Shown here: piece after piece, positions 27,588 through 28,537 of the stretch
Numbering within the stretch: position 1 is the stretch's first letter
Layout of the letters: each line of letters begins with the position of its first letter
Source: a virus
Length of the DNA stretch: 64,000 bases
Direction: 5' to 3' (one strand)
IMG/VR virus record: IMGVR_UViG_3300023109_001684
Made by a program: the position numbers and the translations under genes
The notes under the pieces: model-generated
Told to the model about the DNA's origin: nothing
Databases searched by the model: none
The model's input: only the letters and a program-made list of their open reading frames with translations

Positions 27588-28051
27588 CATTATTACGAAT
27601 GTAATAATGTTTAAGTTTCATGTAGATTGTTTCAGTCAGACGGAACCTGTTACGGTCCCATCTAATCTCAAAATACGCTTCATGTGAGTCGCACCAGCCG
27701 AGACATTGGAAGTAGGTAATTGTTTATACACAAAGTACAATGGGCTCTGACCTTTCCCAACCTACGTCGACATCGCTTGCGCTACCTCTCGCTTCGTTCC
27801 TATTGCTAAAGAGTTTTTATGTACTGTGTTGTGTTTTTCGACTGCCAACATGCAATCTATATCAACTAGTGAGCCCAATTTGTTTGATGGCTTCCTACCT
27901 CTGGGTAGTCAATCAATATGTACGTGTGCTTCTATACGAGAGCTTTTTCCACAGCGGTATTTTTAATCTGGCCCGCCAACCTTAGGTGTTGGAATGCTTT
28001 GCCTGTATGTAATATTTTTAGGAATGCCTGTTGCTATAATAAATCTGCCTA
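27588..28051 (-). ncRNA. Candidate large structured ncRNA downstream of the GIY-YIG gene, family unassigned
   Basis: ~650-bp gap in an otherwise dense genome; own consensus promoter; multiple long-range complementary segments and G-U-containing hairpins that favour the minus strand. Confidence 0.7.
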
Positions 28052-28057
28052 TAAACA

Positions 28058-28086
28058 AGTATAGTTGATCTACATATAACTGTCAA
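28058..28086 (-). promoter_or_regulatory. sigma70 promoter TTGACA-N17-TATACT
   Basis: -35 at 28081-28086, -10 at 28058-28063; starts 4 nt after the GIY-YIG stop codon and points into non-coding DNA. Confidence 0.8.
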
Positions 28087-28090
28087 CCGA

Positions 28091-28537
28091 TTAAGTTGGT
28101 TTTTTTGCCTGCATGTGATGTTCTAGCAATGCCTGTTTGAGTTTGTCTGATCCGCCTACTCTAACATTAATGATACCATTATAGTAATCATCTGTTTCAA
28201 GTACTCGCCTATCAAATTGTTCTCTTGCCTCTATGTAGGACATTTCGCCCCTACCTTTACATAGGTATAATATTTCTCTTGTAAACTTGTCTTCGCCTAG
28301 TGTTGCTACATCTGCGTTTAGTCTATCTGAACTACCGTAGTAAGTTCTCCAATCGCTTTCTTTGTAGCCTCGTCGTTTATTTTTTCTGCCTTTGAGCGGT
28401 GGCTTAGTAGTTTTAAATTTTGCTAGTTTTTTACCTATATATTTTTGGCCTGTAGTGGTGTTAGTAATAAGATAAACAAAGCCTTCGTACTCATCTGGTA
28501 TTTCGTCAATTATTTTACCTTTATAAGTCCACTGCAT
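28091..28537 (-). CDS. GIY-YIG family nuclease (Seg-like, single domain, 148 aa)
   Basis: GFVYLITN...KYIGKK, Y.GSS, F.REIL, conserved E, YYN motifs. Confidence 0.85.
   Translation of the reverse strand: MQWTYKGKIIDEIPDEYEGFVYLITNTTTGQKYIGKKLAKFKTTKPPLKGRKNKRRGYKESDWRTYYGSSDRLNADVATLGEDKFTREILYLCKGRGEMSYIEAREQFDRRVLETDDYYNGIINVRVGGSDKLKQALLEHHMQAKKPT

Follow-up and report, generated by a model that had tools for sequence, protein, structure and literature searches.

A duplicated nuclease gene end and an interposed candidate promoter separate a structured RNA from its overlapping gene in a marine T4-like phage

The stretch of DNA analyzed here (IMG/VR virus record IMGVR_UViG_3300023109_001684; 64,000 nucleotides, hereafter the window) derives from a marine T4-like phage, and on its minus strand it carries a small GIY-YIG nuclease gene followed by a large structured RNA. 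In most relatives the 3′ end of the nuclease open reading frame (ORF) is fused to the start of this RNA, whose 5′ arm is conserved at the nucleotide level. In the window, which belongs to a minority of loci, the gene end is duplicated and a sequence resembling a sigma70 promoter lies between the copies. We consider it likely that the window represents a derived minority allele, in which duplication and promoter together make an RNA embedded at the 3′ end of a gene into an independent early transcription unit. This duplication-plus-promoter allele is new here.

The upstream copy (28091-28137, minus strand) is the coding 3′ end of the nuclease ORF (...QALLEHHMQAKKPT, then stop) and contains two AGGCA words. 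The downstream copy (27982-28032, minus strand) is a noncoding relic, QAFLK / YYIQAKHSNT-stop, which again has two AGGCA words and a CCAACACCUAA end. One extra A breaks the frame of the relic, which reads SNRHS-stop-KYYIQAKHSNT-stop when the frame is anchored on its final stop. That TAA occupies 27984-27982, and the closing helix and first hairpin of the RNA (GGUUGGCGGGCC...) begin directly after it. The best local alignment between the two copies has a 35-nucleotide core and scores 38, as compared with 14.8 ± 2.4 (maximum 31) for dinucleotide shuffles; none of 2,000 shuffles reaches 38, and no other site in the 64-kb window attains this score. AGGCA occurs on the minus strand at 28134-28130, 28110-28106, 28050-28046, 28029-28025, and 28004-28000, which is five times in 135 nucleotides where about 0.09 would be expected (88 in the whole window, both strands), with two of the five owed to the duplication itself. 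An initial annotation made from the letters alone had proposed each of these elements, namely a downstream duplicate of the gene end, its direct contact with the first hairpin of the RNA, a promoter between the copies, and five AGGCA in about 140 bp, and all of them lie where it had placed them. An IMG/VR contig (L211) is identical to the window throughout the junction, and a contig from an RNA library matches 27967-28142 with zero mismatches; since both reproduce the arrangement, the junction is not an assembly artefact. Two further clusters of three AGGCA words with 15- to 21-nucleotide spacing occur on the minus strand at 17493-17528 and 18573-18616, apparently inside coding sequence.

The 58-nucleotide segment between the copies (28033-28090, minus strand) is absent from about 95% of relatives. 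Its first approximately 9 nucleotides past the stop codon look colinear with the start of the RNA (p about 0.006 for the window allele and 0.07 for the allele of locus L027), as if copy 1 had once extended into the RNA and this extension had since mutated. Probably the duplicated unit did not end at the stop codon but reached into the first RNA bases, which would place the −35 box of the promoter on the former GGUUGGCG. For the other 49 or so nucleotides of the insert no source was detected, and they show no significant likeness to the 5′ part of the RNA. A pure 105-nucleotide tandem duplication that included the first 50 or so nucleotides of the RNA was rejected, as the 58-nucleotide insert has no significant similarity to that part of the RNA. 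In a diverged lineage (L115), a separate tandem duplication of about 24 nucleotides, AGGCA followed by UAUAACAGCACAUAA, twice in a row on the RNA-sense strand, lies within the 50 or so nucleotides that precede the RNA. It sits at the same junction as the duplication in the window, and the 5′ boundary of the RNA thus seems to be duplication-prone.

More than 597 IMG/VR sequences are closely related to the nuclease, and most of these have the counterpart of window position 28032 within the gene end, meaning that they lack approximately 105 nucleotides present in the window. As the initial annotation had predicted, the majority have an ORF that ends in ...QAK.SNT fused to the RNA without a promoter insert. 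Neither outcome that would have told against the annotation was seen, as relatives do show the overlap of ORF and RNA and the similarity of the copies exceeds that of shuffled sequence. Among the 80 closest loci, 73 end in ...QAK(H/Q)SNT-stop or two codons further, with the stop directly at the first bases of the RNA; the other seven comprise five of the window type, one with an extra ORF, and one that is cut off. A wider set of loci, retrieved with an invariant 19-nucleotide word of the RNA (some contigs were fetched twice), contains 151 records, of which 115 are fused, 15 have a gap of 10-102 nucleotides, 9 have an extra ORF of 87-104 amino acids, 7 carry the promoter insert, and 5 could not be scored. 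The promoter allele accounts for about 5% of these records. In two loci (L001 and L050) the usual TAA has become AAA, and the ORF reads on for two codons (...NTKG) to a TAG within the first helix of the RNA, indicating that the depth of the overlap is still changing.

The order of events can be read from the copies and from the relatives. The relic keeps the tail of the fused form, IQAKHSNT plus stop, and the coding copy has drifted to ...MQAKKPT; in locus L011 the relic is still one open frame (QQAFLKQYIQAKHSNT, then stop). Basal lineages are without the insert, and the ORF tails of different lineages lengthen stepwise into the arm (...ALNKL, ...QQAK, ...QQAKQSNT, and ...HHIQAKQSNT, each followed by stop). 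Because the relic retains a coding tail with its stop, the basal lineages have no insert, and the tails lengthen in steps, we infer that the duplication arose from an older, fused state. The history suggested in the initial annotation, an ancestral overlap of ORF and RNA followed by duplication and gain of a promoter, is well supported by the fused majority and by the tail kept in the relic, the activity of the promoter being a prediction.

The opposite polarity would make the promoter-bearing, two-copy form ancestral, and the fused allele the product of repeated deletion between direct repeats. Such deletion would be easy given the repeats that flank the insert, and the promoter alleles are indeed scattered on the nuclease tree, with one in a diverged lineage (L126). 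Two-copy ancestry would still require an earlier duplication of a coding tail, however, and the basal lineages, which have a short gap or an extra ORF, show no insert. Moreover, the inserts are nearly identical in their promoter-proximal part, suggesting a young, single origin spread by recombination, and the relic bears the exact tail of the fused clade. We therefore regard an ancestral two-copy form as very unlikely.

The candidate promoter (28086-28058, minus strand) has the form TTGACA-17-TATACT, with the −35 box at 28086-28081 and the −10 box at 28063-28058. It matches 11 of 12 consensus positions, is the best match of the region, and has only four counterparts elsewhere on the minus strand. 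One of these other sites, TTGACA-16-TATATT at 16126-16154 of the window, is also close to consensus, and a covariance model of the RNA 3′ core (model R1) finds no match there. Transcription from the candidate promoter is predicted, from the position of the −10 box only, to start near 28052-28050 and would yield a leader (27984-28052, minus strand) that holds the relic and three AGGCA words, the third of them at the predicted start itself. Across six distinct promoter alleles none of the 12 hexamer positions varies, the spacer is always 17 nucleotides long, and 9 of its 17 positions vary (hypergeometric p about 0.002). Invariant hexamers at a fixed distance around a varied spacer are the pattern expected of a working promoter, and a promoter function is likely on these grounds. 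The first transcribed bases, including the third AGGCA, are nearly invariant across the promoter alleles as well. In IMG/VR, 15 contigs, drawn from 15 metagenomes, contain the exact 21-nucleotide word running from the −10 box to the predicted transcript start, and in each of them it is at this junction. A further promoter-bearing locus, L126, is diverged, with promoter and leader standing behind a nuclease of 75% identity. The leader exists in a long form (window, L211, L011/L203, and L208) and in a short form that has lost 15 nucleotides between the two AGGCA motifs of the relic and kept both motifs.

Loci without the insert offer a different picture of how the RNA could be expressed. In the two fused loci scanned (L006 and L002), no comparable promoter was found ahead of the RNA, and in the window one has to go back as far as the start of gp47, at about 31588, to meet the next strong promoter. 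With no evident promoter of its own in fused loci and a strong one before gp47, the RNA is probably the 3′ end of an early gp47-gp46-nuclease transcript. In the window, the placement of a promoter directly upstream of an RNA at an mRNA 3′ end is, by sequence, the layout of an RNA that derives from a 3′ untranslated region (UTR) and has its own promoter, and we infer that this promoter fires and uncouples expression of the RNA from that of the gene. Metatranscriptome contigs from four studies span ORF and RNA. The fused form is seen in each of the four, as a 106-nucleotide skip relative to the window, with the joint 27996->28103 present in four RNA libraries, and one of the four also shows the form of the window exactly. 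As these data are contigs, no starts, ends, or levels can be read from them, and carry-over of DNA is possible.

The insert might also be neutral or hitch-hiking, or its promoter might mainly serve the 243-amino acid gene that follows the RNA, in which case the relic would look conserved only because it is young. The rarity of the promoter allele, at about 5%, is in line with this, as is the number of differences between the relics of the window and L011 (about 4 in 51 nucleotides, not far from the 4 in 17 of the spacer), and the stretch from the RNA to the following gene revealed no strong terminator. A neutral insert sits poorly, however, with hexamers and a 17-nucleotide spacing that are invariant over six alleles with diverged spacers, including the one behind the 75%-identical nuclease, with the persistence of the allele in 15 metagenomes, and with the short-leader variants, in which 15 nucleotides were lost between AGGCA motifs and both motifs were kept. 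We consider a neutral insert, or one acting mainly on the downstream gene, unlikely.

Several observations weigh against a derived allele that sets the RNA free as its own early transcription unit. The promoter allele appears in at least four places among fused alleles on the nuclease tree, and the nuclease of L126 has a tail of its own that is unlike the relic behind it. The changes on the tree and the case of L126 imply that the module has moved by recombination, that its direct repeats have led to repeated loss, or that both have happened. The source of about 49 new nucleotides was not found. One RNA-library contig crosses the promoter from the ORF into the RNA, which fits either read-through or DNA carry-over, and with no transcript start or end readable, use of the promoter is deduced from sequence. 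The allele is rare, and could thus be neutral or mildly harmful. With respect to the arm itself, GCA is the usual alanine codon throughout the nuclease gene, and synonymous diversity over the last 17 codons is only mildly low, ranking 25th among 132 blocks.

The bases shared by gene and RNA are constrained as nucleotides. Upstream of the closing helix, members of the family have an arm consisting of AGGCA(A/G)A, a spacer of 7-9 nucleotides, and ACA(G/C)CACAUAAGG (in short form AGGCA, spacer, ACACAUAAGG). This motif is kept whether the upstream sequence is the nuclease tail, another small ORF, or noncoding DNA, and the gene tail therefore doubles as the unstructured 5′ arm of the RNA. Codon-level patterns give moderate support to a constraint of this kind. 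In 65 distinct fused ORFs, the third-base G is kept in 64 at codon 135 and in all 65 at codon 143, and the first base of both codons alternates freely between C and A (Gln to Lys), so that the AGGCA word outlasts the amino acid. The relic, likewise, has lost its frame yet kept AGGCA and its last 27 or so bases, which marks those bases as part of the RNA and makes the window allele a natural experiment that delimits the 5′ arm. The C-terminal tail of the nuclease would on these observations be overprinted on an RNA element, and not the reverse.

Whether the arm operates as RNA or as DNA bears directly on the AGGCA repeats, which the initial annotation had alternatively read as protein-binding iterons. 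They could act on DNA, as iterons of an origin or as sites for a phage regulator, and form no part of the RNA. The repeats do make a dense cluster on one strand, and the origins of phage T4 combine a promoter with a transcript, which may be counted in favor of iterons. Against this, AGGCA keeps a constant distance of approximately 20 nucleotides from the closing helix whatever the context, without ever leaving the RNA-sense strand, the third AGGCA falls at the predicted transcript start, and some family members have one AGGCA or none. The leader also avoids secondary structure, which is an RNA-level property: its 69 nucleotides have a minimum free energy of −2.2 kcal/mol, as compared with −5.6 ± 2.4 for shuffled sequences, 191 of 200 of which fold at least as well. 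This low level of structure fits a single-stranded platform. The arm presumably acts as RNA rather than as DNA, and sites that act on DNA seem to us highly improbable.

These observations can be assembled into a history for the preferred reading, in which the window is a derived allele. In the common allele, the RNA would have no evident promoter of its own and would lie at the end of an early operon that begins with the promoter at about 31588. The tail of the nuclease would be overprinted on its single-stranded arm (AGGCA, then ...ACACAUAAGG), with the UAA just before the closing helix. The last 55 or so nucleotides of the ORF would then have been tandemly duplicated, the copied segment probably taking in the stop codon and the start of the RNA, and about 50 nucleotides of new sequence with a near-consensus sigma70 promoter would have come to lie between the copies. 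From that point the upstream copy could stay coding and drift to ...MQAKKPT, and the downstream copy could lose its frame and retain the motifs of the RNA arm. The new transcript would start near 28051, with the third AGGCA at its 5′ end, and protein code and RNA code would be separated, leaving the RNA as a self-standing early transcription unit. Such an allele would free the protein tail and the RNA arm from using the same bases, and would provide a compact viral case of an overlapping protein and RNA code resolved by segmental duplication.

The RNA itself is real, as judged by comparative analysis. Its structured core (27609-27983, minus strand; approximately 375 nucleotides) contains 17 helices and is closed by the pairing of 27982-27978 with 27617-27613. 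A pseudoknot (27734-27825, minus strand) pairs 27825-27820 with 27739-27734 and crosses helices H7 and H8. In the alignment of 57 distinct family members from which the structure of 78 pairs was derived, 96.9% of cells pair, as compared with 36-43% in slid controls, and 34 pairs have changes on both sides as compared with 4-13 in the controls; none of 500 shuffles attains these values. All 6 pairs of the pseudoknot are compensatory, and 99.4% of its cells pair. This covariation, and the 5′ motif kept in every coding context, substantiate the earlier suggestion of selection on the RNA itself. The folding energy of the whole region is unremarkable (z −1.8, sense strand); the case for a structure comes from the comparison of relatives. 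These have several invariant loops in common, and a hairpin at the periphery ranges from a GNRA-capped stub in the window to more than 100 nucleotides in relatives. Three additional pairings were not adopted. A CCAAC/GUUGG hairpin over the stop codon has A in place of the pairing G in 26 of the 57 sequences, and that base covaries instead with the U of H1 (pair 19-43); a long-range UGGGCUC/GAGCCCA pairing was not used, as many relatives are missing the subdomain to which its 5′ strand belongs; and a GUCAGA/UCUGAC pseudoknot has two invariant strands, one of them overlapping H11.

Within the long variable hairpin of some relatives there are direct repeats of 24-40 nucleotides, 31-41 nucleotides apart, termed twin boxes (L152:10194-10258, a perfect 24-mer; L026:2099-2154; L017:3692-3772; and L102:6392-6506). 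A repeat search found none in the RNA of the window, where this hairpin is a stub. Many IMG/VR contigs (L005, L013, L014, L024, L044, L046, L054, and L058) end inside the RNA, at the equivalent of about 27816-27853 in the window. They stop 140-200 nucleotides past the nuclease stop codon, where relatives differ by the presence or absence of subdomains, and the contig ends are probably assembly breaks caused by co-occurring variants.

Searches for known RNAs gave no match in Rfam 15 at E <= 1 (16 kb) or at E <= 10 (501 nucleotides), and ARAGORN found no tRNA or tmRNA in the window. The only match to a core word of the RNA in bacterial genomes (185,579 species) was a 20-nucleotide chance match within a 783-amino acid ORF of a metagenome-assembled genome, and the nearest virus record, a 14-kb fragment (G001), had no match. 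Model R1 finds one copy in the window. It also has matches in two contigs of an unrelated phage lineage that have no protein in common with the window, L113 (6640-7040, E 5e-14) and L120 (1395-1555, minus strand, E 3e-20), and the genes that flank the RNA are different there. In both of these contigs the RNA stands behind a conserved 165-amino acid protein with no assigned function (40% identity between the contigs), and in L113 it lies about 1.2 kb upstream of the large terminase gene.

In the window, the minus-strand genes gp47 (30518-31531) and gp46 (28749-30521) are followed by a 68-amino acid ORF between gp46 and the GIY-YIG gene, by the 148-amino acid nuclease gene itself (28091-28537), by an ORF-free gap of 648 nucleotides (27443-28090) on its 3′ side, and then by the 243-amino acid gene (26711-27442), which has its own start about 170 nucleotides past the RNA. 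The order gp47, gp46, small ORF, GIY-YIG nuclease gene, and RNA of approximately 375 nucleotides is conserved in marine T4-like phages. The nuclease matches Pfam PF19835 (SegE-type GIY-YIG) with E 5.9e-36 and a score of 123.8 bits, where 25 is the cut-off, its residues 3-123 covering positions 1-123 of the 123 in the profile. It is a small protein made of the catalytic domain only, without a DNA-binding domain. Its AlphaFold model (pLDDT 91.5) has the final 18 residues as one helix. The top Foldseek matches of the model are the catalytic domain of I-TevI (1LN0 and 1MK0; probability 0.82-0.87, with weak E values of 0.13-0.32), and phmmer found no match in PDB. In the protein alignment of relatives, the core is invariant to S130, and beyond it the C-terminal tail varies in length and sequence.

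The nuclease gene holds a fixed position after gp46 in all T4-like loci examined, and its median identity to the window (83.6%) is close to that of gp46 (81.6%). A fixed site and divergence at about the rate of gp46 mark it as a stably inherited gene and not a roving homing enzyme; these two features, and the lack of any domain past the catalytic one, speak against a mobile homing endonuclease. The GIY-YIG family of the window, PHROG 447, is commonly annotated as "NAD synthetase" in records of cyanophages and other phages, a label that looks like a propagated mis-annotation given the clear match to the GIY-YIG profile.

A close dependence of gene and RNA on each other, of the kind seen with TnpB RNAs, had also been suggested in the initial annotation, and this suggestion was not supported. 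The RNA would in that case be an obligate partner of the nuclease, guiding it or serving as its scaffold in the manner of TnpB and IscB omega RNAs, with the 5′ arm as its recognition or guide segment. In favor of this, the nuclease has a catalytic domain and no DNA-binding domain, an unstructured 5′ arm stands beside a large scaffold, and the RNA abuts or overlaps the 3′ end of the ORF in about 130 of the 151 records (the 115 fused and the 15 with a gap of 10-102 nucleotides), across 57-95% protein identity. However, the two do not always occur together. Phage Melnitz, whose genome is complete, encodes a 71%-identical nuclease, though at another site, and has no match to model R1, and in L113 and L120 no GIY-YIG gene occurs within 6.6-6.9 kb upstream of the RNA. 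The nuclease family is single-copy in approximately 800 phage records, mostly cyanophages, and in only two of these does the gene-plus-RNA stretch have any DNA similarity, limited to a 106-nucleotide piece of the gene. The arm shows conservation and not the variability of a guide, and the locus, which is syntenic, yielded neither a variable guide nor ends of a mobile element, no target search having been made. The pair occupies one fixed syntenic site in T4-like phages, and adjacency alone therefore shows no partnership. An obligate partnership is in our judgment most improbable.

The RNA could also be a functional gene in its own right, encoding a ribozyme or the scaffold of a ribonucleoprotein, in which the unstructured AGGCA arm is a recognition platform read by a protein, possibly the GIY-YIG nuclease, or by another nucleic acid. 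We think this improbable as well. If true, nature would have provided, in the window allele, a separation-of-function mutant whose overlapping protein and RNA codes were disentangled by duplication, an escape from adaptive conflict. More generally, what appears to be a dedicated early promoter, found in 15 metagenomes, suggests that the RNA is more than a 3′ UTR, which bears on the role of an abundant and uncatalogued RNA family of marine phages. Since both the fused and the promoter allele are present in the sea, metatranscriptomes allow the two to be compared, and the promoter allele offers a defined transcript for in vitro work.

The RNA resembles parts of several known systems. As with group I introns that carry a GIY-YIG gene, such as T4 td with I-TevI, the phage is of T4 type and has a GIY-YIG catalytic domain of I-TevI type, and the RNA of the window has, as they do, a helix-enclosed long-range pseudoknot, GNRA-capped peripheral hairpins, and variable peripheral domains. 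The long-range helix 27825-27820/27739-27734 covaries and is enclosed by H8, but no P1, guanosine-binding site, or terminal G could be assigned, and there is an extra hairpin between the P7-like and P3′-like strands. Unlike an intron, the RNA has no exons and lies between genes with their own start and stop, with the nuclease ORF upstream of it and not inside it. The absence of an Rfam Intron_gpI match at E <= 10, the upstream ORF ending at its own stop, and the downstream ORF having its own start speak against a group I intron. GOLLD and ROOL (Rfam RF01998 and RF03087) are also large, elaborately folded noncoding RNAs, often phage-borne and known mainly from metagenomes. They have no sequence or structure match to the RNA described here, which is smaller, occupies one syntenic site in T4-like phages, and is overlapped by a protein tail.

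The insert itself invites comparison with the PeSL cassettes of T4-like phages (PMC2839356, PMC4122927), which are likewise short early-promoter modules associated with indels and apparently spread by recombination. The promoter in the window differs in having no real stem-loop beside it, only a 4-bp possibility. A PeSL cassette was rejected as an explanation, since the module occurs once in the window (<=3 mismatches), has no terminator-like site, and is found in IMG/VR only at this junction. With the omega RNAs of TnpB and IscB (OMEGA), the likeness is one of overlap geometry only, a large structured RNA at the end of a small nuclease ORF. The nuclease here is GIY-YIG and not RuvC or HNH, there is no transposon, no transposon ends, and no variable guide, and neither the nuclease nor the RNA is strictly tied to the presence of the other.

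Bacterial small RNAs (sRNAs) derived from 3′ UTRs are of two types, type II being processed from the mRNA (CpxQ and SroC) and type I being transcribed from a promoter of their own inside the ORF (DapZ and MicL). As in these sRNAs, the RNA described here follows the coding part of an mRNA at its 3′ end and has the orientation of that mRNA, with the fused allele comparable to the processed type and the window allele to the own-promoter type. It differs from them in being approximately 375 nucleotides long, pseudoknotted, and phage-encoded, and its putative promoter was supplied by a duplication that copied the overlapped tail, rather than being recruited inside the ORF.

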